DNA of 48,313 nucleotides from Fimbriimonadales bacterium (lineage in GTDB: Bacteria; Armatimonadota; Fimbriimonadia; Fimbriimonadales; JABRVX01), in contig BTVI01000024.1 in NCBI GenBank assembly GCA_045862955.1, positions 1-48,313 on the forward strand, given 5' to 3'. The notes under the pieces were generated by a model that was not told the DNA's origin, did no database searches, and was given only the letters and a program-made list of their open reading frames with translations. Numbering within the stretch: the first letter of the stretch is position 1; every line of letters begins with the position of its first letter. Of the stretch, positions 20,196 to 34,243 are shown piece by piece. Position numbers and translations under genes: made by a program.

Positions 20196-20281
20196 GGGCG
20201 AGTGGCGGAATTGGTAGACGCCCTGGATTTAGGTTCCAGTGTCCACGAGACGTAGGGGTTCGAGTCCCCTCTCGCCCACCA
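20196..20281 (+). tRNA. tRNA-Leu (anticodon TAG)
   Basis: GGGCGAG/CTCGCCC acceptor stem, anticodon arm CTGGA-TTTAGGT-TCCAG, long variable arm, GGTTCGAGTCC, encoded CCA. Confidence 0.97.
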
Positions 20282-20323: not shown

Positions 20324-23300
20324 CTACCAGTCTCTGAGTACCATTTCGAGGTAGCTATCCACTGGCCCCCTTTGTAGCACTGAGTGCGCGAACTGGTTCC
20401 TATAGCTGCGAAGGCAACCGTAGCAGGACGTCATCTCGTCGCATCCGCAGGCTCCGCTAACCCTCGACTTCGCGGATTCCAAACAGGCCTTTAGGATGGT
20501 CGGGTCCTCGAGTCGAGTGACTAGCCCTGCACCGCCTGGCACGTTATCGTATATGACAATGGTCGGCGTGACTTGCTGGCTCCGCGGGTCGATCGTCGTA
20601 CTTAGGTCCGTATCAGGGACCTCAAGAACTTCAGCAGCGCCATGCAAGATAGCGTAGGCCAGTGAAAGGGCGAAACCCACACGGTCCGACGCTTCAGACG
20701 ATCCCTTAGAGAAGAGCAAACGGACCACGTCGGTAGTGAACTCGTGGCCGAGAGACACAGGGTCCAGCATTCCGTGGCACTCGCGGCCAAAGGGGCTCCG
20801 ATGAGACCTCGTCATGGTCAAGAACCCCGCGCCACAATCGCGGCACACCCAGAAACCTTGACCCTTACGACCCTCACACAAGACAACCATCGTTCCCGGT
20901 GTCGCTGGGGTGACCGTCACGTGCCCTTTCCCCGGTGGCATTTCAACGGAGCCCGGTTCAGGCCCGACAGGACCGGCGAAGAAAGGCCGGGAGCTGAACA
21001 CTCGCGGCCGACTCGCGCTTGGCACCTTAGGCTGTTCACGCGGCGCGATGAAGCCGAACCTCGGGATCAAATACGTGAACGTGCGAAGTTCGCAGCCACA
21101 AGGGCTGGCAGGCTCGCTGTCGCCGTCCTTCCACTGGCAGAACGCACCATGCTTGAAGCATCGGTAATAGTGCCTTCGTTCCCACTCTCGCTCGGCCACG
21201 CGTCTGAGGCCTGCCGAAGTCCATTCCAACTTATTGGCGACCAAGCGGCTGCCAGGTGCGAATTCCGAGATGGCCAAGGAGAGGTCCCTCGTGAGGCCTA
21301 CACCATGCCCGTCGCGAGCGGTCGGCTGTAAGTCAAGCTCAACGACGTCCACAGGGAATCCGTACTTGGGAATAACCGCCTTCCGCGAGAGGAATGAGAG
21401 CACGTCTTCAGATGCTATGGTGTTTGCACGACGCTTTGCCCATTCTGCAGTGCGGTAGTCCCTGTCTCTTGTCGCAGCTTGCTCGACATTGAGGACCTGG
21501 CGGTAGTCACTCGAGACCTCCAACTCAGATTGTCGGAGCCTTCCCTCTCTCGTTATCCGGTCGATCCAACTGCCATCAGAGAGCCCTAGTTCCCTACGCA
21601 TCTCCGCAGGGACAACTTGCTCAAGTCGCTGCTCGATCTGCGCTCGGCAACTCCTGAGAAACGACCGGAGGTCGGTCGAGAATTGCGGTGCACTAAGGTC
21701 GCCGAACATCTCGCTCACTGAGCGGAAGCGCTCTGGAAACGCCCGGAAGAATGCCGAGGCGGCAACAGCCACCAGGTGGCGCAAGACAATTCGCTCGTTC
21801 CGTATTGCGAGAGCAGGCGGGCGAACCATGCCTGACAGTATCTGCTTCGGCTCGGCGAAGTGATACAGATCGTGCGGACTTCGGCGGCAGTATGTAATTG
21901 CGAAGCCAGGATTGCCCGGTCGCCGCCCTGCACGGCCCACGCGCTGTGCGTAGTTGAACGTTTCAGGCGGTACGTTTCGCAGGAATATCGTGTCCAAATC
22001 GCCGAGATCTACGCCAAGCTCGAATGTGGTTGAGCAACTGAGCACGTGGATTTGGCCCGACCGGAACTCACGCTGGAACTTGCGAGCTTGCTCATGGTCC
22101 AGCTGTGCCGTGTGCTCCTCGACCCTAAGAGGCCCTGGCAGGCTTGCTGAGTAGAGGGTTCTGTAGTGGTTTGGCTCAAGGTCTCGCCTGAGTTTGGGCC
22201 GCGGAAAACCGGGGCACTTGTTTCTCTTGCACACACCGAGACCGGGCTCTGACTGCAGGCGGCTGCAGACATCGCACTCGTAGATCACGTCTTCGGCTCC
22301 GACGGGGCTGATCCTCCACCAATCAGGGTTGAGCTTCCGAGCCTGACCATCTGCAACTAGTAGCCGCTGGTCCTCCGAAGGGGCACCACCGTCCCAAGTC
22401 CCAAGCGCCTGCCAAACACTTCGCAGAGCATATTGCGCATGGCAGGTGGCCTCCTCGTCTGAGAATCGCTTGCTGCGCAGGTATCGTCTCAAGTAGTCGA
22501 CCCACCGTCCGCGCCCCCTGCTGCCTCCGTCCCAGCTTTGGACGTTGCTCTCTCCCCGCGGATCGCCCAATCGCACAGACTTGGGACCGCCCGACAGCCC
22601 GAGGTCCTCCCACATGAGGGGCACGCCTCGGTCCGTTCGAAGGTCGACAGCTCGAACAACTCTCAGCATATCCAGGAGCACGCACACCACGGACCACGCG
22701 GCGTTCGCGTCCAGGTTCCAGGGCTCGTGCTGGAATACGAGTTCTCTCTCCATCCAGGGGGGCCGTTTTGGATGCCAACGAACGAGGCCAACACCCTCTA
22801 GGCATATGCTCTGCTGTTCCGAGAGGAACTCCGCATACATCCGCCTCCACACATCGGAGAGCACCTCGATCTCACCAGCAGAAGGGCTCAGGACCTTGTT
22901 CTCTTGGAGCACCTCCCGGAAGATCAGCAGTAGGTCGCGTAGGGAGGAACCGGCAACGGACGTCGCTTGAGCACGCAGGACCGCCCTCAGAAGTAGATTA
23001 CGGTTCAGAACCTCCTTGTACGTGTCGTCCAGGTACCAGGCAAAAAACGCTGCTTCCTGACGTCCGTCGGCGAAGGCAAGCACCTTCCGGCGTTGTTCAG
23101 GTAGGTTCTGGTGAAGGGCCGTTGCGATCACAGCATGGGGACCGTAGGCACCGTACAGGACTTCGCGAACCGGATCTCGCCCGGTGAACTCACAGGCACC
23201 GCACTTCGCAATCCTGTCCGACCTGCCCTCATCCTCCGGACTCGGTTCAGCTACCAGGTGGATCGCAGCGTCATGGCAGCAGGAAAGCGGTGACTGATCG

Positions 23301-24973
23301 ATGTGGCCGCACTTGCCGCACAGCCACCATCGGTCTCTGCCACCGCTAAGCTCCTCGAGGCCGTCTCCATCAGTGTTTGGGATCGGCCTTAGAAAAGTGA
23401 TGCCCGACAAGGGATGCGATGGATCACGTTCGGGCTCGCGCAGCCGGCCGCTCCGCAGCGGGTTAGGGGCCAACAAGTAGTGCTGTCCACACTCCCTGCA
23501 CAGTGCAACTTCGAACGCAACGCGCTCGCCTTGAACCGACTTGCGGTCTAGGTAAACCCGCTTCTCCGGCCAATACGATACGAACGCGCCCTCAAGTGCC
23601 TTTAGAAATACGTGGTAACGGAAGGTGACGAGCGGCGAATTGCTGTTCGGGTCGTTCACCAGCGACAGAAGCCGGATCAACTTGACGAGAGCGTCGATGC
23701 GTCTCTCTGTAGGGCAGTCGTCGAAAACTGCATCTGCCACAGACTGGAGTGTTGCCGGCCCCCCTATGAGCGCTTGACGTAAGCGGCCAACGCGTCCGTC
23801 AGCCAACAGGATCCTAGCAATGAGGCGGCTGCGATCTTCGGTGTCCACAACCTTGGCACCTATGCTCGAGGCAAGTGCCGTTAGGTCCAACCCGTCGTGG
23901 GAGCCACCTTCGAGTGTCGCGAGCATGTGACCATAGCAGTCGGACTCAAGCGAGCTAGCTCCCCCAGTCGCCGGTGTCTCGGTGTCACCAAGGATGACGT
24001 CGCCCTCCTCGAATACCTCGTCGAACAACTTGCTCGCGAAGCCCGCGACCTCGCCCGAGTCGGCAGGACCTCCTGACAGGGTAGCACTGGTAGCAATGCA
24101 CCGGAGCCCGCCACGGTTTCCTCCCTCGCGGAGGCGCTGCTTCAAGCGCCGGATCAGCATTGCCATCTCAATCCCCCTCGCGCCTCTGTATTGGTGGGCC
24201 TCGTCAAGGACCAGGAACTTCCAAGTGCGAGCCCTGCCGTTATCGAACAGGGGACTGTCATCGGGCCGCATCAGGAGGTACTCGAGCATGGAGAAGTTGG
24301 TGAGCAAGATGTGCGGCGGCGACTTTCGCATAGCTGACCGAAAAACCATCTCGCTGTTCAAACAATTCCGGAGGTGGTCAGATGCATTCCGTCTTGTGTC
24401 ACTCTCGTCTTCGGGTGTTTCGCCAATGTACTGCCCGAATTTGAACCTGAACGACGATCCGCTGGCTTCCAGCTTGGCAGCAATCTCGCCCAGTCGTTCG
24501 CGCTGATCGTGCGCGAGGGCGTTCATTGGGTACAGAATTAGTGCTCTGACTCCTGGAGCTAGCTCACCGCGCAGATGCTCGGCGTACAAGTGAAGCAGTA
24601 TCGGTATGAGGAAAGCTTCGGTCTTGCCACTACCGGTTCCGGTTGCGACGATCACGTTGCGCCCGGCCGCAACCGCTCGGACTGCAGCCTCCTGATGCGA
24701 GTACAGTGGCCTATCTCCCCACACAGCGTCCAGCAGGCCCTCATCGACTGGCAGTGCGAAAACCTCAGGAATGAGACTGCGAAGCGTAAGAGTGCGCCTG
24801 AAGTTTGGGATAGCTTCTACGTAGGGGCCCTTCAGCAGCGCGTCTCTTCCCAACTCCTCGGCAAACGACCGACGGAACTCCGGATCGGCGAAGCGAAACG
24901 TGGTGGCCAGATATCGCCTATACGTCTCTGCAACATGTTGCGCTATCTTGACTGGGTCAACTGAGTGGGGCAT
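20324..24973 (-). CDS. Large SF2 DEAD/DEAH helicase with Zn-binding inserts and C-terminal DUF1998 (DruE-like)
   Basis: TGTGSGKTE, YPMNALA, DEAHQY, ATSAT, STTFELGVDLG, QRVGRAGRR, YDNVPGGAG, CGC...SCYGCL. Confidence 0.92.
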   Translation of the reverse strand: MPHSVDPVKIAQHVAETYRRYLATTFRFADPEFRRSFAEELGRDALLKGPYVEAIPNFRRTLTLRSLIPEVFALPVDEGLLDAVWGDRPLYSHQEAAVRAVAAGRNVIVATGTGSGKTEAFLIPILLHLYAEHLRGELAPGVRALILYPMNALAHDQRERLGEIAAKLEASGSSFRFKFGQYIGETPEDESDTRRNASDHLRNCLNSEMVFRSAMRKSPPHILLTNFSMLEYLLMRPDDSPLFDNGRARTWKFLVLDEAHQYRGARGIEMAMLIRRLKQRLREGGNRGGLRCIATSATLSGGPADSGEVAGFASKLFDEVFEEGDVILGDTETPATGGASSLESDCYGHMLATLEGGSHDGLDLTALASSIGAKVVDTEDRSRLIARILLADGRVGRLRQALIGGPATLQSVADAVFDDCPTERRIDALVKLIRLLSLVNDPNSNSPLVTFRYHVFLKALEGAFVSYWPEKRVYLDRKSVQGERVAFEVALCRECGQHYLLAPNPLRSGRLREPERDPSHPLSGITFLRPIPNTDGDGLEELSGGRDRWWLCGKCGHIDQSPLSCCHDAAIHLVAEPSPEDEGRSDRIAKCGACEFTGRDPVREVLYGAYGPHAVIATALHQNLPEQRRKVLAFADGRQEAAFFAWYLDDTYKEVLNRNLLLRAVLRAQATSVAGSSLRDLLLIFREVLQENKVLSPSAGEIEVLSDVWRRMYAEFLSEQQSICLEGVGLVRWHPKRPPWMERELVFQHEPWNLDANAAWSVVCVLLDMLRVVRAVDLRTDRGVPLMWEDLGLSGGPKSVRLGDPRGESNVQSWDGGSRGRGRWVDYLRRYLRSKRFSDEEATCHAQYALRSVWQALGTWDGGAPSEDQRLLVADGQARKLNPDWWRISPVGAEDVIYECDVCSRLQSEPGLGVCKRNKCPGFPRPKLRRDLEPNHYRTLYSASLPGPLRVEEHTAQLDHEQARKFQREFRSGQIHVLSCSTTFELGVDLGDLDTIFLRNVPPETFNYAQRVGRAGRRPGNPGFAITYCRRSPHDLYHFAEPKQILSGMVRPPALAIRNERIVLRHLVAVAASAFFRAFPERFRSVSEMFGDLSAPQFSTDLRSFLRSCRAQIEQRLEQVVPAEMRRELGLSDGSWIDRITREGRLRQSELEVSSDYRQVLNVEQAATRDRDYRTAEWAKRRANTIASEDVLSFLSRKAVIPKYGFPVDVVELDLQPTARDGHGVGLTRDLSLAISEFAPGSRLVANKLEWTSAGLRRVAEREWERRHYYRCFKHGAFCQWKDGDSEPASPCGCELRTFTYLIPRFGFIAPREQPKVPSASRPRVFSSRPFFAGPVGPEPGSVEMPPGKGHVTVTPATPGTMVVLCEGRKGQGFWVCRDCGAGFLTMTRSHRSPFGRECHGMLDPVSLGHEFTTDVVRLLFSKGSSEASDRVGFALSLAYAILHGAAEVLEVPDTDLSTTIDPRSQQVTPTIVIYDNVPGGAGLVTRLEDPTILKACLESAKSRVSGACGCDEMTSCYGCLRSYRNQFAHSVLQRGPVDSYLEMVLRDW

Positions 24974-24976
24974 GCT

Positions 24977-27175
24977 TCATCGAAGCTCCATAAGGTCACG
25001 ACAATGTCGGTGACGCAGGTGAGCGACGAACTCAATAGGTTTCGGATTCTCGAGGCTCTGACCGCACAGTACGCAGACGTACAGCAGAGGCACAGTCCGG
25101 CTGAAATTCTGTATTACGCTACTACGTATCTCGTCAACGTCCTTAACGATGCGAAAGCTCTCTTCTTTGTCCTGGTGCTTCTCCTGGAGATGATGTGTCA
25201 TCCTCGAAGTCATACTATCGAGAGGGTCCTGGGCGAAGTAGAGGTCGCAGTGATTGCATCTGTATATCGTTCTCGGCAATGACGGGATCCTCTTCCGCAC
25301 TTCATCGTACTCCTGCAGCTTCCGAAAAAGCTCGTCAACGTGGCATTCCTGCACATGCTGCCAGAATCCATTCTCGTCGTCAGCACTGAAGTCGTCGCAT
25401 CTTCTGCAGCAAGCCACCACCGACAGTACGCCGACGGAAACGCAGCATTTCCTCCGTGCTTCCATCAACCCGACTAGTAGCGTTTTAACCATCGGTCCAT
25501 CGATAATGGTGGGATCAAACATTTCCCGAAGTGGAGCCGAAACGACGCGTTTCCCCGCACTTGTCTGGTATCGGCGCTCTGGCAGGTCGCCTAGGGACAC
25601 TCGCACATCCCTGCACTCAGTCGCCAACGGAAGCCGTACCCACAGCGCTTGTGGAGAAGTTGCTTGGTACCAATCTAAGGGCGTGTTCACCTGTTGATCC
25701 GTCCAGGCTTGTGGTATTATGCCTTCTCGCCCGAATTGCCACCACAGCCTGTCGAGCCCAATCCGCACAACTACGTTTCCCCCGGCGTCGAAGACACGCC
25801 ACTCTGTTATGTCCAGGTCCGGGGCAGGCGGAATGCGGAATGAAGTCTCGTTTGGCCGTTGTTCTACTAGCTCGGCACGTTGCTCCTGTGGCATGATCGT
25901 CACATCTGGGTGATGGGAAAAAGTAACCACCACCGGAACGTAACCGGTGGGTCCAGGCGCCCTCGCGTCACCGTCGACACGTATGTTGGTGAGGCCTTTC
26001 GCAAACCGGAAGGCCCAGCTGTCCAATAGGTCACTGTGAGCGTCATAGAAGCGAAGGAAGTACCATCCTGTCCCTGGAACGTCATCTGATAATGCCAACT
26101 CGTTCGCATCCGGATCGGGTTGTAGTCTCTTACGCCATCGATGACTCCCTGATCCTTCTTCTCCGAGCACCACGCAGCCGATGTGACTCCATGCGCTCTG
26201 AGAGCCCACGATCTTCGGCGCTTCGCCACCGAATAACGGCCCATATTCGGAGGCGGCGTCATCCAACCTCACACCCTCCAGCCTTAGTCCTAACTCACGG
26301 ACTCGCAAAAGCACTGGCGGTCCCGAATGCCTCCGAAAGCCTATCTGGCCGTTCCGTAAGAGATCGAAGTGATGTGCGGTATAGCCAGGGACATGGACAG
26401 GCTCGACAGCCGCTGGCGGACTGCCTGAAGAGTTGATATCACGTTGCCAGGAGTCCGGGACAATAGCAAGCACCCGGCCAGTTGAGGGTCGGATTACACG
26501 CCTGCCCACGCTAAGATCTCCCGCGAGCCGGAACAGCAACAGACAATCGGACCCGAGTGGGATGTTGTACTGTGAGTCCGCGCAGACGACCGGACTCGAC
26601 AGCGACCGCAGGCGTACCAAGCGATTGTTCCCTGGGTCGGGCTCAAGTGACTTCCCGTCTTGGGAGGGGTCGAGGCCCGTGGCGTCCATCTCTGGAGGCA
26701 TCTCGAGACCGACCAGCCAAGCGCGGTCCCGGCGGAGACAGACTAGTTCCGGACGCGCAATACGATGGCTCTTGTCAAGGCTGGGGTGTGTGGTACCACG
26801 TGGCCTGCCGCCGCGTCTTTCCGGCGCACGTCTCACACGATGCTCTTCGCGTGCCGCGCCATGCTTGCCAGTTGGAATGAGGATGACCCCCTCAAATGCT
26901 TCATCGACGCTGTCCAGAGGTTCAGGCGCCGTCACGCTTCTGGCTTGCTGCAGCTCCATATCGTGGGAGACTATCAGGGGGTCTCTATCGCCGTCGTCCG
27001 AGACCTCTTCACCTAGGCGTAAGTCGACAGCTGGCAGGGAGCCACGATCCTCATCTGCGCTACTTCTGCTCGCCGTAGTGAGCGACCGCCTGCCGACTAC
27101 TTTCGCCAGCAACACACCTGCCAGCGCCCCGACGCTGACAGAAACAAGCAGTCTGGCAAACAGCTTAGCTTCCAT
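24977..27175 (-). CDS. Hypothetical protein: N-terminal TM anchor, beta-rich middle, three C-terminal C2H2-type zinc fingers
   Basis: 732-aa ORF ending 3 bp before the helicase start; CRRC..HVQECH, CNHC..HLQEKH, CVLC..HLRHRH. Confidence 0.8.
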   Translation of the reverse strand: MEAKLFARLLVSVSVGALAGVLLAKVVGRRSLTTASRSSADEDRGSLPAVDLRLGEEVSDDGDRDPLIVSHDMELQQARSVTAPEPLDSVDEAFEGVILIPTGKHGAAREEHRVRRAPERRGGRPRGTTHPSLDKSHRIARPELVCLRRDRAWLVGLEMPPEMDATGLDPSQDGKSLEPDPGNNRLVRLRSLSSPVVCADSQYNIPLGSDCLLLFRLAGDLSVGRRVIRPSTGRVLAIVPDSWQRDINSSGSPPAAVEPVHVPGYTAHHFDLLRNGQIGFRRHSGPPVLLRVRELGLRLEGVRLDDAASEYGPLFGGEAPKIVGSQSAWSHIGCVVLGEEGSGSHRWRKRLQPDPDANELALSDDVPGTGWYFLRFYDAHSDLLDSWAFRFAKGLTNIRVDGDARAPGPTGYVPVVVTFSHHPDVTIMPQEQRAELVEQRPNETSFRIPPAPDLDITEWRVFDAGGNVVVRIGLDRLWWQFGREGIIPQAWTDQQVNTPLDWYQATSPQALWVRLPLATECRDVRVSLGDLPERRYQTSAGKRVVSAPLREMFDPTIIDGPMVKTLLVGLMEARRKCCVSVGVLSVVACCRRCDDFSADDENGFWQHVQECHVDELFRKLQEYDEVRKRIPSLPRTIYRCNHCDLYFAQDPLDSMTSRMTHHLQEKHQDKEESFRIVKDVDEIRSSVIQNFSRTVPLLYVCVLCGQSLENPKPIEFVAHLRHRHCRDLMELR

Positions 27176-27269
27176 GGATACTTACGCAGCAGCCCGAAGC
27201 CTCCTCCGCGATACCGTGCTATCCTCCAGTACCGACTGCTCAGACGCTACCGACTAAGTTAACACAAGC

Positions 27270-27278
27270 ATTATACCA
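27270..27278 (-). promoter_or_regulatory. Extended -10 element of the helicase operon
   Basis: TGGTATAAT about 95 bp upstream of the ATG at 27175. Confidence 0.55.
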
Positions 27279-27325
27279 CGGAGCCTCACGTTCGGCATTC
27301 AGATGAGGGGGTTAGCATAGTTGCC

Positions 27326-27991
27326 TCAGAACTGCACGCCAGCGCTGGCGCCGAGATGCCTGCCCTTGACCAAGAGCAAGCTGAGGTTCCAGTCTTCCGC
27401 CTTATACGACAAGAGCCAATGGGTGTTGCGCCCGTCGTGCTGCAGCATCGCGTCCCACTGAGGGCGTATAGTCCAGTTCAGGCCGAAGGGAACCAGCGGC
27501 GTATCCTCCCACTCCGACCAGGAGAGCGAGGTATAAGGAGCGAGCTTGGTGCCGGGGATGCTCTTTGCCGCAGTCAAGTAGTAGCTCCGTGTCCCCTCCG
27601 GCGAGAAGATGCGGTCACTCGATGTGCCCAGACTCAGCATGGGCCTCTCGGCGTCCTCGAGCAGCAGCGTCCAGTTCGCCACGGGCAGGACCTCGCCCGC
27701 CGCAGGGTTCACCTCGATACCAACAAGCAGTCTGTCGGTCAAGCCATACGCCGCGTTCAACCGCCAGCGTGGTCGAGCCTCGCGGACGTCCACGTACCGG
27801 AGAGTCAGCTGCACCTGTCCTTGCACGATCCTCGACCTGAGGAATTGGCCTTCGCCCGGTCACCCGGTTCAGGTCGGCACGGCGGTTGGTCTCGCGGGCA
27901 CCTCGTCCTGAGCGACGCTGCCGACAACGGCCACACTGAACAGCACGAGAGCAGCCACCGCTCGTCTGCCGATGAGCGGACAGGTTCTCAT
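27326..27991 (-). CDS. Candidate secreted/outer-membrane selenoprotein with UxxU (U41-T-G-U44)
   Basis: Signal peptide in frame with the 166-aa ORF across two TGA codons (27871-27869, 27862-27860); SECIS-like hairpin downstream; amphipathic beta strands ending in GVQF. Confidence 0.75.
27829..27843 (-). promoter_or_regulatory. Putative bacterial SECIS hairpin
   Basis: UCCUC-AGGUC-GAGGA; loop begins 21 nt after the second UGA and 30 nt after the first. Confidence 0.6.
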
Positions 27992-28061
27992 CCACCTGTT
28001 CAGCGGACATCCCAGAGACATAGTGCGGCATGATACCACCTCGCTGACCTCTTCTCTTCGC

Positions 28062-28198
28062 GCCTGTTGAAAGCGGCCCTATGCCCCGGCTCCTGTCCCC
28101 CGTTGGCAGCGCCGAGGGCATGAGGTGAAGCGAAGGACCGCGCCGGGGCACGAGTTGCAGCGCCCTCGTTGGTGCTGTGATGCGCTTTTTCAAAAGGC
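28062..28198. mobile_element. Possible MITE-like element
   Basis: Imperfect terminal IR GCCTGTTGAAA / TTTCAAAAGGC and internal IR TGCCCCGGC / GCCGGGGCA. Confidence 0.35.
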
Positions 28199-28258
28199 CC
28201 CTGAGCAAGATGCGCCTGCTGTAATCTGATTTCGGGAAACTTAAGAAGAGAGACAGGG

Positions 28259-28286
28259 TATAATAAAGATAAACCTAGGTTGATCT
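28259..28286 (+). promoter_or_regulatory. -10 element and palindromic operator, probably bound by the DtxR-family regulator
   Basis: TATAAT at 28259-28264, then AGATAAACCTAGGTTGATCT (28267-28286), a 20-bp palindrome with one mismatched pair. Confidence 0.7.
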
Positions 28287-28304
28287 GTCCGCGCGGAGCA
28301 TCGA

Positions 28305-28970
28305 ATGACACCGTCCCCGGCCGTTCAGGACTACGTCAAGGCCATCTACAAACTGGAGCGCCTCGGAGGCAAGGTCTCGACCGCCAAGGTCGCCGAGCGA
28401 CTCGGCACGTCACCGGCAGCGGTCTCCAAGATGCTGAAGTCCTTGTCGCAAGCAGGCCTGGCGCACCACGAGCCTTACATGGGGGTCCGGCTTACGGCGC
28501 GCGGGGAGGCCGTGGCCCTCGAAGTCATCCGCCACCACCGACTGCTCGAGCTGTACCTGCACGATGTGTTGGGCTACTCTTGGGACGAGGTCCACGACGA
28601 GGCGGAACGCCTGGAGCACCACATCTCCGAGGAGTTCGAGGCGCGCATAGACCGCCTGCTCAACTATCCGACCACCGACCCGCACGGCTCACCCATCCCC
28701 ACGACGGACGGGCGTATGGAGCCGCCAACGGGCACGCCGCTGGCCGATGCCGAGCCGGGCGATCACGTGGTGATTCGAAGAGTCCGAGACGACGATCCGG
28801 AAATGCTACGCTTTCTCGCCTCGCTCGGCCTTCGACTCGGCACGGTCCTCCGCGTGCTGGACAAGCAGCCGTTCAATGGCCCACTCACCTTGGAGGTAGG
28901 GGAGGAGCGGATCGCTCTCGGGCGCGATCCCGCGTCGCAGGTGTACGTGGAGGCGAGCGATGGCGGATAA
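28305..28970 (+). CDS. DtxR/MntR-family metal-dependent repressor with FeoA-like SH3 domain
   Basis: DYVKAIY, RHHRLLELYL, EAERLEH, DPHGSPIP. Confidence 0.95.
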   Translation: MTPSPAVQDYVKAIYKLERLGGKVSTAKVAERLGTSPAAVSKMLKSLSQAGLAHHEPYMGVRLTARGEAVALEVIRHHRLLELYLHDVLGYSWDEVHDEAERLEHHISEEFEARIDRLLNYPTTDPHGSPIPTTDGRMEPPTGTPLADAEPGDHVVIRRVRDDDPEMLRFLASLGLRLGTVLRVLDKQPFNGPLTLEVGEERIALGRDPASQVYVEASDGG

Positions 28971-29214
28971 CCTCACGCTGGACCGGTTGGCGCCCGGCGA
29001 GTCGGCCCGTGTGGTATCGCTCGCAAGCGAAGGGCCAGAGAGGCGGCGCCTATTGGATCTCGGCTTCGTTCCTGGAGCGCAGATCAGGGCGAGCCTACGC
29101 AGCCCGCTCGGCGACCCGACCGCATACGAGGTGCGAGGTGCTCTCATCGCCCTCCGCCGGGAGCAGGCGGCGAGAATCACCGTCGAACCGCTGGAGGTGA
29201 CTGCCGATGCATGA
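28960..29214 (+). CDS. feoA: Ferrous iron transport protein A
   Basis: RRLLDLGFVPG, SPLGDP, IALRREQA. Confidence 0.93.
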   Translation: MADNLTLDRLAPGESARVVSLASEGPERRRLLDLGFVPGAQIRASLRSPLGDPTAYEVRGALIALRREQAARITVEPLEVTADA

Positions 29215-30016
29215 AGCCGCGACCTGCGGCGCGTGTCGGGCGTGCGAACCACTCGACCTACTTCGTTTCGGTCTCGATACCGTTGCCTACGACCACGTAA
29301 TCGCGCTCGCCGGCAATCCGAACACGGGCAAGAGCACGCTCTTCAACGCGCTGACCGGCCTTCGGCAGCACGTGGGCAACTGGCCGGGCAAGACGGTCGT
29401 GCGAGCCGAGGGCGCGTATCGCTATCGGGGAGCAAAGTATAAGGTCGTGGACCTGCCGGGCACCTATTCGCTATTGTCGAACAGCGTGGATGAGGAGGTG
29501 GCCCGCGACTTCATCCTTTTCGGCAGGCCGAATGTCACCGTGGTAGTGACCGACGCCACGTGCCTGGAACGCAATCTGAACCTGGTCCTGCAGGTGCTCG
29601 AGATCACGGACCGAGCGGTAGTCGCACTAAATCTGGTGGACGAGGCCGAACGGCAGGGCATTCGTGTGGATGTCTCTGTGCTCTCCGAGGAGCTCGGAGT
29701 GCCAGTAGTCCCGACGGCGGCGCGATACCGTCGCGGTCTCCCTGAGCTCTTGCAGGCGACACACGAGGTTGCAACTGGCGTGGCTCGGCTCTCGCCGAAG
29801 CGCCTGCACTACACCGACGATCGCCTGGAGGCGGCAATCGCGGAAGTCGAGCAAGAGGTCCTCCGACTTTTTCCCGGACTGCCGAATGCGAGATGGGTGG
29901 CACTGCGCCTTCTCGAAGGCGACGAAAGCGTGCTACAGGAAGTCCGAAACGGCACGCTGGGCCGCCTCACTCATTCCACAGCACCCCAGAACCGGACGGA
30001 ACTGCGAGTACTGTGA
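29207..30016 (+). CDS. feoB: FeoB N-terminal GTPase module (split FeoB)
   Basis: GNPNTGKST, VGNWPGKTV, DLPGTYS, NLVD. Confidence 0.9.
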   Translation: MHEAATCGACRACEPLDLLRFGLDTVAYDHVIALAGNPNTGKSTLFNALTGLRQHVGNWPGKTVVRAEGAYRYRGAKYKVVDLPGTYSLLSNSVDEEVARDFILFGRPNVTVVVTDATCLERNLNLVLQVLEITDRAVVALNLVDEAERQGIRVDVSVLSEELGVPVVPTAARYRRGLPELLQATHEVATGVARLSPKRLHYTDDRLEAAIAEVEQEVLRLFPGLPNARWVALRLLEGDESVLQEVRNGTLGRLTHSTAPQNRTELRVL

Positions 30017-31428
30017 GCACTGCCGAACACGAACTGCTGTTGGTGCGAGCGCGCGAAGCCCGCGAGCGGCTGGGCGACGGACTACACGACCGTGTCACCG
30101 AGTCGTTGTACTCCGAGGCACAGCGGATCGCCGCCCGAGTGGTCTCCAGTGCCGGCAAGCCCGATTTGCTCAGTCGTCGGCTGGACAAGCTCCTGACGAG
30201 CCGCCTGACCGGGTTTCCGATGATGTTCCTGCTATTCGTAGGCGTGTTCTGGATGACCATCGCGGGGTCGAACATCCCCTCATCGCTCCTCGGCAGTCTC
30301 CTCACGGACTCGCTGTATCACCTGCTGCATTCGGGGGCGGACCGAATCGGTGCACCCTGGTGGCTCAGCGGCCTCCTCATAGACGGTGTGTACTTGGCGA
30401 TCGCTTGGGTTTTCAGCGTGATGCTGCCACCGATGGCCATCTTCTTTCCGCTGTTCACGCTGCTGGAGGACTTCGGCTACCTGCCCCGCGTTGCGTTCAA
30501 CCTGGACAGGCTGTTCAAGGGTGTCGGAGCGCACGGCAAGCAGTCGCTGACGATGATGATGGGCTATGGTTGCAACGCGGCAGGCGTCGTCTCGACTCGC
30601 ATCATAGACAGCCCCAGAGAGCGCCTCATCGCCATCATCACCAACAACTTTTCGATCTGCAACGGCCGTTGGCCTCTGCTGATCCTGATGGGCACGATCT
30701 TTTTGGGTGCGGCCGCGCCACCGTCGCTCGCGTCGCTCATTGCAGCGGGGAGTGTGGTGGGGGTCTCACTACTGGGCGTGGCCTTTGCCATGGGAGTGTC
30801 GCTGTTCCTGTCTCGCACCTGGCTGAAGGGGGAAGCGTCGGCGTTCAGCCTCGAGCTTCCGCCTTACCGTCCGCCCCGCCTCTTACAGACCCTGTACACC
30901 TCTCTCATAGACCGCACGCTCATCGTCCTAAAGCGGGCGATGATCATGGCAGCACCTGCAGGTGCCGTGATCTGGCTGATCGGCAACGTCCATGTCGGGA
31001 CCGACAGCATTGCCGCCCACATGGCACGCGGCCTAGATCCCCTCGGGCTGTCCGTCGGTCTGAACGGCGTGATCCTGCTGGCCTATATTGTTGCGATTCC
31101 TGCCAACGAGATCGTCATTCCCACCGTGATGATGCTGACGCTGACACTGGCGGGCTCGTCGCTCGGCTCGGCTGGCGTGATGTCGGAGTTCGGCGAGGCG
31201 CAGACCAGGGAGATCCTGACGGGCCTAGGCGGGTGGACGGTCCTGACGGGCCTTAACCTGATGCTATTCAGCTTGCTCCACAACCCCTGCAGCACGACAC
31301 TGCTGACGATATGGAGAGAGACGGGTAGCCTGAAGTGGACTGCGGTCTCGGCGCTGCTCCCGGTCGCGCTCGGCTTCGCTGTGTGCTTCCTCACCGCATC
31401 GGTGGCGCGGTTGTTGGGCTGGGCCTAA
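30013..31428 (+). CDS. feoB: FeoB membrane (Gate) module (split FeoB)
   Basis: LEDFGYLPRVAF, GYGCNA, ELPPYR, PANE, HNPC; GTG start overlaps the upstream TGA (GTGA). Confidence 0.88.
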   Translation: MSTAEHELLLVRAREARERLGDGLHDRVTESLYSEAQRIAARVVSSAGKPDLLSRRLDKLLTSRLTGFPMMFLLFVGVFWMTIAGSNIPSSLLGSLLTDSLYHLLHSGADRIGAPWWLSGLLIDGVYLAIAWVFSVMLPPMAIFFPLFTLLEDFGYLPRVAFNLDRLFKGVGAHGKQSLTMMMGYGCNAAGVVSTRIIDSPRERLIAIITNNFSICNGRWPLLILMGTIFLGAAAPPSLASLIAAGSVVGVSLLGVAFAMGVSLFLSRTWLKGEASAFSLELPPYRPPRLLQTLYTSLIDRTLIVLKRAMIMAAPAGAVIWLIGNVHVGTDSIAAHMARGLDPLGLSVGLNGVILLAYIVAIPANEIVIPTVMMLTLTLAGSSLGSAGVMSEFGEAQTREILTGLGGWTVLTGLNLMLFSLLHNPCSTTLLTIWRETGSLKWTAVSALLPVALGFAVCFLTASVARLLGWA

Positions 31429-31519: not shown

Positions 31520-31969
31520 CTATTCGCCCCCTCCCGGGCCGTCGCACAGGATACCCTTGGATCCGACCAGCGTTCCCCACCTGTCGTACAGCAGGTTTCC
31601 GCTGATCGGGTGGAATGCCGCGATGGAGAAGAAATCCGGACCCCAGAAGTTGTCCTCCATTGCGAAGAGGACCAAGCGCGGCGTGCCGTTGACGTAGCCG
31701 TGGCCGCCGATCAACACGCGCTGACCGTCGCACTGGAACAGGTCGAACCGGTTCATGTAAATGCGAACGGCCGGAGCCGCAGCCTCAAGGTACGCGAACT
31801 GCCCGTAGATACCGGCGTCCGTCGCCGCGACCCAGAAGTCCACGGCTGTAACATTACCTCGCGTGTTCACTCCGATGTTCCTGTCAGCCCACGCGATGCC
31901 AGTAGTGGCCTGTGCGTAGGCGGAAATCGCGAACGCCAGCACGGCGATTCCCAGAATGACCTTTCTCAT
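31520..31969 (-). CDS. Small secreted protein, array member 1
   Basis: AAGGAGG RBS, signal peptide; FWVA, GIYG, GYVNGTPR, AFHPIS, LLYDR, LCD. Confidence 0.85.
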   Translation of the reverse strand: MRKVILGIAVLAFAISAYAQATTGIAWADRNIGVNTRGNVTAVDFWVAATDAGIYGQFAYLEAAAPAVRIYMNRFDLFQCDGQRVLIGGHGYVNGTPRLVLFAMEDNFWGPDFFSIAAFHPISGNLLYDRWGTLVGSKGILCDGPGGGE

Positions 31970-32045
31970 CTCCAAACCCTCCTTCGTGTCAATCGCAAAA
32001 TGCGGGCTCGCCAGTGGGATACCCGCAATGTAACGCGCTATCATT

Positions 32046-32148
32046 CTACCACAGCTAAAAAGAATACGGGCCGGGCAAATTGCCCGGCCGCAGATATTCT
32101 GTAACCTTTGACAGCCTGCGCGAACCTACACGCTAGTTGTCGGGCCCG
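32046..32148. repeat. About 100-bp intergenic repeat, copy 1 (terminator-like hairpin plus extended -10)
   Basis: Near-identical to 32678-32780; GGCCGGGCAAATTGCCCGGCC hairpin, then TTCTTTTT and TGGTAGAAT on the minus strand. Confidence 0.85.
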
Positions 32149-32597
32149 TTGGGCAGGTCGCATAGGACAGAGACGCCGCCCCTCGTGAACACTCCCCAGC
32201 GGTCGTAGAGTAGCGTGCCGCTAATCGGGTGGAACGCGGCGATGGCAAATAGGTCCGGGTACCAGACGCCGTCCTGCGCTTGGACTAGTATGACCCGCGG
32301 CGTTCCGTTCAAGTACCCTTGTCCTGCAAAGGCAACTAACATGCCTTCGCAGGAGAACGCCTCGATGCGGTTCATGAAGATCTCCACGTCTGGCTTTGGG
32401 CTCCTCTGCCACTTCTCCGCATAAGCGAACGTGCCGTAGATGCCTGCCTCCGTGGAGGCGACCCAGAACTTCGTGATAGCGTCAGTGTCCCGGGTAGTCC
32501 TGAGCCTGCCTTCGCCGTACGCAATGCCGATCGAGTTCTGTGCAAGAGCAGCTCCCGCAAGCGCCAGGGCAGCGAGGCCGATCAGAAGCTTGTTCAT
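32133..32597 (-). CDS. Small secreted protein, array member 2
   Basis: AAGGAGG RBS, signal peptide, same motifs as member 1. Confidence 0.88.
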   Translation of the reverse strand: MNKLLIGLAALALAGAALAQNSIGIAYGEGRLRTTRDTDAITKFWVASTEAGIYGTFAYAEKWQRSPKPDVEIFMNRIEAFSCEGMLVAFAGQGYLNGTPRVILVQAQDGVWYPDLFAIAAFHPISGTLLYDRWGVFTRGGVSVLCDLPNGPDN

Positions 32598-32677
32598 CTT
32601 TGCAACCCCTCCTTTAGGGTAATAGAAACTGTGAAACCTTCTTCACAGCCGGGGGTGAAATCCCATCTCCTGTCATT

Positions 32678-32780
32678 TTACCACAGCTAATAAGAATACG
32701 GGCCGGGCAATTTGCCCGGCCTCGAATATTCTGTAACCTTTGACAGCGCGCGCGAACCTACACGCTAGTTGTCGGGCCCG
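32678..32780. repeat. About 100-bp intergenic repeat, copy 2
   Basis: Near-identical to 32046-32148. Confidence 0.85.
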
Positions 32781-33229
32781 CTGGGCAGGTCGCAGAGAAC
32801 CGAAACGCCGCCCTGCGTGAACTGGGCATACCGATCGTAAAGCAAAGTCATGCTGATCGGGTGGAAAGCTCCTACCCAGAACAGATCGGGGTACCACACG
32901 CCGTCCAGAGCCTGAACGATGATGACGCGGGGAGTGCTGTTGACGTACCCCTCGCCGTAGAAGGCAACGCCGAGGTCCTCGCAGGAGAACCCGTGGAACC
33001 GGTTGATCCGGATCTCGACATTGTCGGATCGGCCGCCCCGCTGCCTGTCTTCGTACCAGAACTTGCCGTAGACACCGGCTGGCGTCGAGGCGACCCAAAA
33101 GTCGGTCCTCACTGTGGTGCCACGCCCGGTGATCATGAAACCGGATCCGTAGGCGATCCCCTGGGAGTTCTGCGCGAAGGCAGCTACGCCGATCGTGAGT
33201 GCCAAGCAGCCCACTAGAAACTTAGTCAT
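32765..33229 (-). CDS. Small secreted protein, array member 3
   Basis: AAGGAGG RBS before MTKFLVGCL, same motifs. Confidence 0.88.
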   Translation of the reverse strand: MTKFLVGCLALTIGVAAFAQNSQGIAYGSGFMITGRGTTVRTDFWVASTPAGVYGKFWYEDRQRGGRSDNVEIRINRFHGFSCEDLGVAFYGEGYVNSTPRVIIVQALDGVWYPDLFWVGAFHPISMTLLYDRYAQFTQGGVSVLCDLPSGPDN

Positions 33230-33302
33230 ATTCCCTCCTTCAAGTAGAGCAGTGACGATACTCCCCCGCAGACGAGCGAGCACATATTTCACCTAGCTAA
33301 GT

Positions 33303-33331
33303 ATTGTACCATAGGTACCCCTTCTAGCCAA
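33303..33331 (-). promoter_or_regulatory. Sigma70-like promoter for array member 3
   Basis: TTGGCT, 17 bp, TACAAT with an extended TG. Confidence 0.55.
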
Positions 33332-33439
33332 GCCGATTCTTCACTTCTCGCCCCGCCGAAGCGGATACAGGTAGCTTTGCGATCCTTGAACCCGCCAGGT
33401 CGGTCCTGTTCTTGCCGATGAGCGGTTGTCCGCCCGCGC

Positions 33440-33904
33440 CTAGCCAAACGGCCTGCAGAGGACCGTCAGGCCGCCGGTTCGGAACACGCAGTAGCGGTCG
33501 TAAAGCAACGTCATGCTCACCGGATGGAAGGCGCCAACGAGGATCAGGTCCGGTCCAGCGCCGCCATCTAGCATCTCCGCCACGATGTAGCGGGGTGTGC
33601 CATTCAGGTATCCGGGTCCACCGAACGCCGCAGAGTTGCCATTACACCCGAACCCCGCGAATCGGTTCAGACTGATCTCAACCGCGTAGTTGTTGCTGTT
33701 CTGGCCCTGATGCCACTCGACGAACCAGAACCGACCATAGACGCCCGACTGGGATGCCGAGGCTACCCAAAAGTCCACTGCGGCGTCGGTCTTGCGATGG
33801 GTTTCTAGTCGGCCTTTGCCGTACACGATGCCGGCGTCGCTACCGAAAGCGGCAGCGCAGATGCTGAGGATGATGGCCGCACATGCGGCCCGAAGCTTGA
33901 ACAT
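33440..33904 (-). CDS. Small secreted protein, array member 4
   Basis: AAGGAGG RBS before MFKLRAACAAII, same motifs. Confidence 0.85.
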   Translation of the reverse strand: MFKLRAACAAIILSICAAAFGSDAGIVYGKGRLETHRKTDAAVDFWVASASQSGVYGRFWFVEWHQGQNSNNYAVEISLNRFAGFGCNGNSAAFGGPGYLNGTPRYIVAEMLDGGAGPDLILVGAFHPVSMTLLYDRYCVFRTGGLTVLCRPFG

Positions 33905-33921
33905 ATTCCCTCCTTCGTTTC

Positions 33922-34243
33922 TCATCGAACTCGTATGCTGTCGGTCTTGCGGCGAGCTCCGACCCACAAAGGAGTCGCCGAGCCACCGCCGGGAAGGTCG
34001 CACAGCACGCACAAGTAGCCCTCGTTCGAGATCGCCCATCGATCACAGACGAGGTTCATGCTGAACGGGTGAAAGGCTCCGATCGCGAAGAGGTGCTGAC
34101 ATCGGGGATGCGACCCAGAGCCTGAACTCCAAGTGGTTGCCGTAATGGGAGCGGGCCAGCCCTTGGCCGAAAGCGGTCTTCGTCCGACCAATCGCTGAGG
34201 CGCAGAGCGCCAGCTCGGAAAGACCGGCAGAGGTCTTGCTCAT
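33922..34243 (-). pseudogene. Array member 5, internally deleted and frameshifted
   Basis: N-terminal ...FRLWVAS in one frame joins LFAIGAFHPFSMNLVCDRW...VLCDLP in another; the central part is missing. Confidence 0.7.

Follow-up and report, generated by a model that had tools for sequence, protein, structure and literature searches.

A predicted outer-membrane beta-barrel family whose N-terminal arm carries two in-frame UGA codons, probably read as selenocysteine

Proteins carrying two selenocysteines (Sec) three residues apart are few in bacteria, and none of those in a table of 119 prokaryotic selenoprotein families (PMC13188914, Table 1) is a membrane barrel. The UxxU entries of that table are a Prx-like oxidoreductase (PF00578, UxxC/UxxU), the metal-binding family NF041115, and the FmdB-family regulator TIGR02605. 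The family described here shares with them the spacing of the two Sec and a likely redox or metal-binding role, whereas its motif is followed by a beta-barrel and their models do not match it. The three folds we take to be thioredoxin-fold, HMA-like, and zinc-ribbon, respectively.

Sec in an exported outer-membrane barrel has also been catalogued, in two families with one Sec each: the GSU2204 family of the MtrB/PioB type (NF041027) and a TonB-dependent receptor of the FCYXU type (NF049945) (PMC13188914, Table 1). No YHS/TlpA module is described for either of them. The present proteins contain two Sec and have no NCBIfam match. Both barrels are presumably much larger. A YHS (seleno)protein, NF041384, likewise ties the YHS domain to Sec biology, but its Sec (GxU) lies in the YHS protein itself and not on a barrel arm, and the YHS partner found here scored 19.7 against a cut-off of 70.

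No match to any of the 119 catalogued families was found in Pfam or NCBIfam, the table rows with only CDD or PANTHER identifiers, or with none, being compared by name and motif (PMC13188914, Table 1). No double-Sec barrel family appears in passages of deep-Sep (PMC12013277) and of the SAO preprint (10.1101/2022.07.06.499078), and a full-text search of largely open-access literature returned no description of one. The first-pass annotation had suspected an undescribed UxxU family, and the double-Sec barrel family is real and apparently undescribed. It adds a widespread selenoprotein family, the members of which are reduced in public gene calls to signal-less barrel fragments labelled hypothetical.

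The gene was found in a 48,313-nt contig of a Fimbriimonadales bacterium (BTVI01000024.1; the whole of this stretch is called the window), and the coordinates of its features are collected in Table 1. The listed ORF begins at 27826, and its 166-aa product is the version present in the public protein collection. According to the first-pass annotation, the frame continues upstream through two TGA codons three codons apart and into a signal peptide, and the translation agreed: starting with MRTC and ending with GASAGVQF before the stop codon, which is itself a TGA, the frame has no internal stop apart from those two TGAs. The predicted protein comprises a signal peptide, the arm PTAVPT-U41-TG-U44-PGEGQF, a barrel, and the terminal F221; translation could alternatively begin at the in-frame ATG at 28021. 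Its nearest named relatives belong to Armatimonadota.

Table 1. Positions in the window of the selenoprotein gene, its predicted parts, and the divergent neighbours
Feature	Position	Strand	Remarks
Full gene	27326..27991	-	221 aa with both in-frame TGA codons read as Sec
Predicted signal peptide, residues 1-27	27911..27991	-	Basic start, hydrophobic core, S-V-A cleavage site by eye
TGA, predicted Sec41	27869..27871	-	TGA in 113/113 loci; Cys in CAGC, CPGU, CPLU, and CPLC relatives
TGA, predicted Sec44	27860..27862	-	TGA in 113/113 loci; Cys in CAGC, UAGC, and CPLC relatives
SECIS-like hairpin UCCUC-AGGUC-GAGGA	27829..27843	-	5-pair stem, 5-nt AGGUC loop with G second
Predicted 12-stranded beta-barrel, residues 60-221	27329..27814	-	Ends G-x-x-x-G-x-x-F; AlphaFold2 and fold search
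Divergent DtxR/MntR-type regulator, feoA, feoB	28305..31428	+	This copy only

The gene is covered in full by a contig from an independent study (X4, depth 21), which is identical in the coding region; the TGAs are therefore not an assembly error, and sequencing error, which the first-pass annotation had named as grounds for refutation, was ruled out as their source. RNA runs yielded low-depth contigs only, one of them covering 27450-27701 (X18) and another, probably of DNA origin, covering the TGAs (X15). A sigma-70-like promoter was looked for across 27100-28400 and none was found.

Among the 114 homologous loci examined, both TGAs were kept in all 113 that had upstream DNA. Some of these loci are near-duplicates, the 157 barrel genes collapsing into 91 clusters at 80% identity. 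The motif read UTGU in 49, USGU in 39, UVGU in five, UPGU in two, and USAU in one of 96 distinct loci, and every one of the 89 distinct homologs with at least 60 upstream codons had an open frame and a hydrophobic 10-mer ahead of the first TGA. A profile of the truncated proteins matched 76 of the 401 genomes sampled from the phylum, the open frame of most strong matches stopping at 176-186 aa. Relatives accounted for 544 of 600 candidate stretches in a metagenome search, the best 80 of which were retrieved. At the protein level, truncated named records of Acidobacteriota (Thermoanaerobaculia), Calditrichia, and Eisenbacteria were 68%-84% identical to USGU loci, and the Atlas cluster of the family has 1183 members, most commonly of Acidobacteriota. 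One locus labelled Methyloversatilis (L003) was left out as a proteobacterial member because its gene groups with Armatimonadota copies at 80% identity or more and its upstream translation agrees with that of genome G120.

The machinery for Sec insertion was present in the source genome (completeness 97.6%), in which selA, selB, and selD scored above their cut-offs and a tRNA-Sec was found, as the first-pass annotation had proposed to verify. The selA gene was above cut-off in 42 of the 44 other genomes with a DNA-verified UxxU motif, versus 212 of the 401 genomes sampled from the phylum; the two remaining UxxU genomes were 86% and 92% complete. Sites of the form TGA-N6-TGA numbered 1462 in the source genome, and six of them had a same-register 5-pair stem with the loop G. 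Reading of TGA as Trp was rejected, since the genome encodes a normal tRNA-Trp(CCA) along with tRNA-Sec(UCA) and the TGA pair is invariant. Taken from sequence comparison, both TGAs almost certainly encode Sec. The selD gene of the same genome (G000:C2:120031-121151) adjoins tRNA-Sec and contains an in-frame TGA of its own, followed by a strong 9-pair SECIS-like hairpin with a GAG-GUC-CUC apex.

The first-pass annotation had described a hairpin whose loop lies 30 nt downstream of the first UGA and 21 nt downstream of the second, and its position was as claimed. Most relatives have seven or eight pairs and a G-led 3-nt loop. To evaluate covariation, 93 sequences (92 distinct) were aligned without gaps; in this alignment the 8-pair hairpin was 95.2% paired, with two-sided changes in seven of the eight pairs. 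None of 500 shuffles reached this pairing, slid controls were 45%-60% paired, and RNAalifold recovered the same helix. Since the base-pair swaps in the stem alter the amino acids (QFLGSG vs. APLRGSG), RNA pairing rather than protein sequence is suggested to be kept here. The hairpin also decays with the loss of Sec: at least six of seven pairs were formed in 105 of 114 genes with two Sec (UU) versus two of 11 with two Cys (CC), with mean energies of -12.4 (the family mean) and -6.7 kcal/mol, respectively.

The window's own hairpin is among the weaker ones of the family and falls below the family mean in strength. Folded alone, it was within chance (z -0.45), and its energy was -6.3 kcal/mol for the 27-nt piece, weaker than the bSECIS consensus, and -11.2 kcal/mol when the 41 nt following the second UGA were folded; its significance derives from covariation in the relatives and not from single-sequence folding. 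The bSECIS model as given in PMC13188914 has a loop of 3-9 nt, a stem of 4-16 bp, a G in the first two loop positions, a distance of 16-37 nt from the UGA, and a consensus free energy no higher than -7.5 kcal/mol. The geometry of the hairpin lies within that model for both UGAs, so that one shared SECIS likely serves both, and the family thereby offers a natural test of one element serving two UGAs. The likeness of the AGGUC loop to the fdhF apex, also pointed out in the first-pass annotation, held in part: the hairpin is real, but AGGUC does not characterise the family, since among the relatives the first loop G alone is invariant.

Distant relatives carried CAGC, UAGC, or CPGU at the motif, and a second barrel subfamily (L136, L139, L144, L155-L162) with UPLU, CPLU, or CPLC has a hairpin of its own. 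Two barrel genes of different subfamilies lay within 2 kb of each other at three loci. Three genomes without selA (G225, G241, and G330; 97%-98% complete) had one match each, which read CAGC, CAGC, and CPLC. Homologs accordingly keep TGA at both positions or show Cys, the pattern which the first-pass annotation had proposed to look for. A 57-row tree rooted at its midpoint placed the CAGC/UAGC clade (support 100/100) and the CPLC gene among Sec forms, which suggests that Sec is ancestral and Cys derived in the family. With the UU, UC, CU, and CC series, the advantage of selenium over sulfur becomes measurable in one scaffold. The database protein P0004, which alone among the homologs seen reads C-V-G-W there, may come from a CxxU gene whose TGA was translated as Trp, or else be a decayed copy.

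The first-pass annotation had also described an exported, beta-barrel-like protein with a terminal Phe, and structure prediction backed this description. AlphaFold2, run on residues 35-221 with an alignment of 125 rows, predicted twelve long strands at a mean pLDDT of 89.6; confidence was lowest in the arm that holds the motif (residues 35-54; pLDDT 58 and 54), and there was no thioredoxin fold around the motif. The best match of the fold search was the COG4313 channel (Z 16.4, rmsd 2.7, 166 aligned residues), followed by KdgM (Z 15.8), FapF (Z 15.7), and the EstA autotransporter barrel (Z 15.4). The strands alternate in hydropathy, and 93% of the family end in F. Polar residues are conserved in the barrel (R65, R77, E93, E100, D126, R127, T140, K143, D186, H191), all of these except E100 being 86%-98% conserved. 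The even strand number, amphipathic alternation, signal peptide, and C-terminal Phe, all of them predicted, fit an outer-membrane barrel, and the protein is very probably of this type. Neither the protein nor its relatives had a Pfam family match, no NCBIfam model matched, and a profile search of PDB sequences gave no match at E 1.

Compared with COG4313 (4rl8), KdgM (4pr7), FapF (5o65), NanC (2wjr), and the autotransporter barrels, the model aligned over 150-166 residues with Z 13-16 and rmsd 2.4-3.0. The sequence identity to these proteins was only 6%-14%, with no PDB sequence match, and they have no known Sec/Cys arm; the barrel here spans only about 162 residues and has very short loops. 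Several of the structural alignments start at arm residues 1-9, and some autotransporter ones at residues 6-9, which hints that the arm, a low-confidence region of the model, may lie in the pore. YjbH (PF06082) was an Atlas neighbour by features (0.96, in a cluster that is 83% YjbH), with a TM of 0.85 by query for the predicted structure. Membership in that family was rejected, with PF06082 matching none of 125 family members at E 0.01, and no polysaccharide-export genes recurred beside the relatives in the neighbour ORFs scanned.

The surroundings of the relatives indicated recurrent partners. Directly downstream of 57 of the 100 loci having a flank of at least 400 nt, an exported protein was encoded that bears a YHS-type Cys domain; wherever the gene was complete, a TlpA-like thioredoxin was fused to this protein. 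Such neighbour counts overstate independence, as many of the loci are closely related. By clusters at 80% identity, 71 of 91 of which have full flanks, YHS and TlpA were found in 31/50 and 27/50 clusters of the UxxU-PGEG type, in 9/9 and 6/9 of the CAGC/UAGC clade, and in 2/11 and 1/11 of the xPLx subfamily; the one CPGU cluster had neither. Neither was nearby in 19 of the 50 UxxU-PGEG clusters, that of the window's gene included. The YHS domain was fused to the barrel N-terminus, fused to TlpA, or encoded by a separate upstream gene, and TlpA with a WATWCxxC motif followed even Cys-only barrel members. A complex prediction pairing the Cys-form barrel of L147 with the YHS protein encoded upstream of it scored 0.00 and counts neither for nor against binding.

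Genes related to metals were also encountered beside the relatives. An ArsR-type regulator was upstream in six loci, a short Cys-rich, metallothionein-like peptide in 20 of 154 loci, a heavy-metal P-type ATPase was beside four loci (L048, L128, L131, L159), and a CusA/CzcA pump was beside one of these (L048). In the three closest tree relatives of the window's gene (L002, L020, L047), the Cys-rich peptide is encoded upstream, in two of them together with an ArsR gene, and YHS-TlpA is absent. As the pumps are of both Cu-like and Zn/Cd-like types, they do not fix the metal. The Cys-rich ORFs, of about 25-50 codons with at least seven Cys, were noted upstream of L002, L020, L026, L034, L047, L081, L131, L141, and L157, and such short ORFs are likely missed by gene callers.

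Based on this material, we propose that the two-Sec arm binds a soft metal at the mouth of the barrel, within an envelope metal-handling module; we give this reading a probability of about one half. SelB would read the single shared SECIS for both UGAs, and the protein would be exported and inserted in the outer membrane. The N-termini of outer-membrane proteins face the periplasm, and the arm would be periplasmic or folded into the pore. A periplasmic TlpA-type thioredoxin would keep the selenium pair reduced despite the oxidising periplasm. The bis-selenolate would then take Cu, or Zn/Cd/Hg/Ag, from the YHS domain or hand the metal to it, thereby gating or loading the pore, which would represent a new control of metal traffic or redox across the outer membrane. 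In one enzyme, the YHS domain is described as a probable copper sensor (PMC4626032). A wider picture, in which several diderm phyla share a selenium-gated soft-metal channel with one SECIS, a dedicated TlpA, YHS metallochaperones, and Sec as the ancestral state, is put forward more tentatively.

The same barrel may instead work as a catalytic redox relay, the main alternative though a less likely one, in which a UxxU diselenide/diselenol cycle recharged by TlpA would deliver electrons to outer-membrane or extracellular disulfides, polysulfide, or oxidised metal or chalcogen ions, with YHS in a structural or sensing role. The presence of TlpA with UxxU fits a pure redox role as well as it fits the metal model, and this thioredoxin accompanies even the Cys-only members, but a relay alone leaves unexplained the YHS fusions in every arrangement, as well as the ArsR, Cys-rich peptide, P-type ATPase, and CusA/CzcA neighbours. 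The x-x spacing is typical of redox motifs among the Sec/Cys pairs in Table 1 of PMC13188914, and the alignments starting at arm residues 6-9 would suit an arm threaded through the pore; the lack of a thioredoxin fold around the motif speaks against a relay.

A role of the barrel in selenium uptake, sensing, or storage, whereby the full product would be made only when selenium is available and the barrel would traffic selenide or selenite or buffer selenium in the envelope, appears improbable. Sec is the majority state, with the Cys forms nested in Sec clades under the midpoint root, but Cys-only members with YHS partners persist in genomes without selA. One locus (L086) has a selA gene at a distance of about 1.5 kb, but it was the only one among 172 neighbour ORFs scanned, and Sel genes are therefore not regular neighbours. 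That the TGAs are true stops or encode another residue, with the 166-aa ORF as the real product, is very hard to maintain: public gene calls do begin after the TGAs and P0004 does show C-V-G-W, but the 166-aa product is barrel-shaped yet has no signal peptide, the TGA pair is invariant with Cys as its alternative, the covarying hairpin is lost in Cys forms, selA co-occurs, and the genome has normal tRNA-Trp(CCA) and tRNA-Sec(UCA) with the gene itself ending at TGA.

Against the soft-metal reading, the window's copy differs from many relatives in its surroundings, having no YHS, TlpA, ArsR, Cys-rich peptide, or metal-pump neighbours. Other contigs of the source genome encode an exported YHS protein that stands alone (C19:11259-11666) as well as several TlpA-like proteins, and such partners would here act in trans. 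The divergence from a metal-regulated feo operon noted in the first-pass annotation is real at this locus (DtxR-feoAB), but no FeoA, FeoB, or DtxR family occurred among the 172 neighbour ORFs of relatives scanned (255 picked, 50 loci), and a conserved feo/DtxR link was rejected on that account.

A near-perfect palindrome, GATAAACCTAGGTTGATC, lies at 28267-28284 of the window, just after a TATAAT, about 20 nt before the DtxR/MntR-type gene and about 280 nt from the selenoprotein start. It presumably resembles DtxR boxes and is likely the autoregulatory operator of that gene. The feoB gene consists of two overlapping ORFs, with the GTPase part at 29207-30016 and the membrane part at 29893-31428 on the forward strand. 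On the reverse strand, positions 20324-27175 include two genes. One encodes a 1549-aa DEAD helicase with an MrfA Zn domain, which Druantia DruE profiles match with an E of 1e-158. This helicase is preceded by a 732-aa unknown gene, and both are next to a tRNA-Leu (20196-20281) in a lower-GC stretch, possibly constituting a defence island that borders the selenoprotein gene on its downstream side. At 31520-34039, also on the reverse strand, four related tandem ORFs encode proteins of 154-199 aa with signal peptides and no Pfam family.
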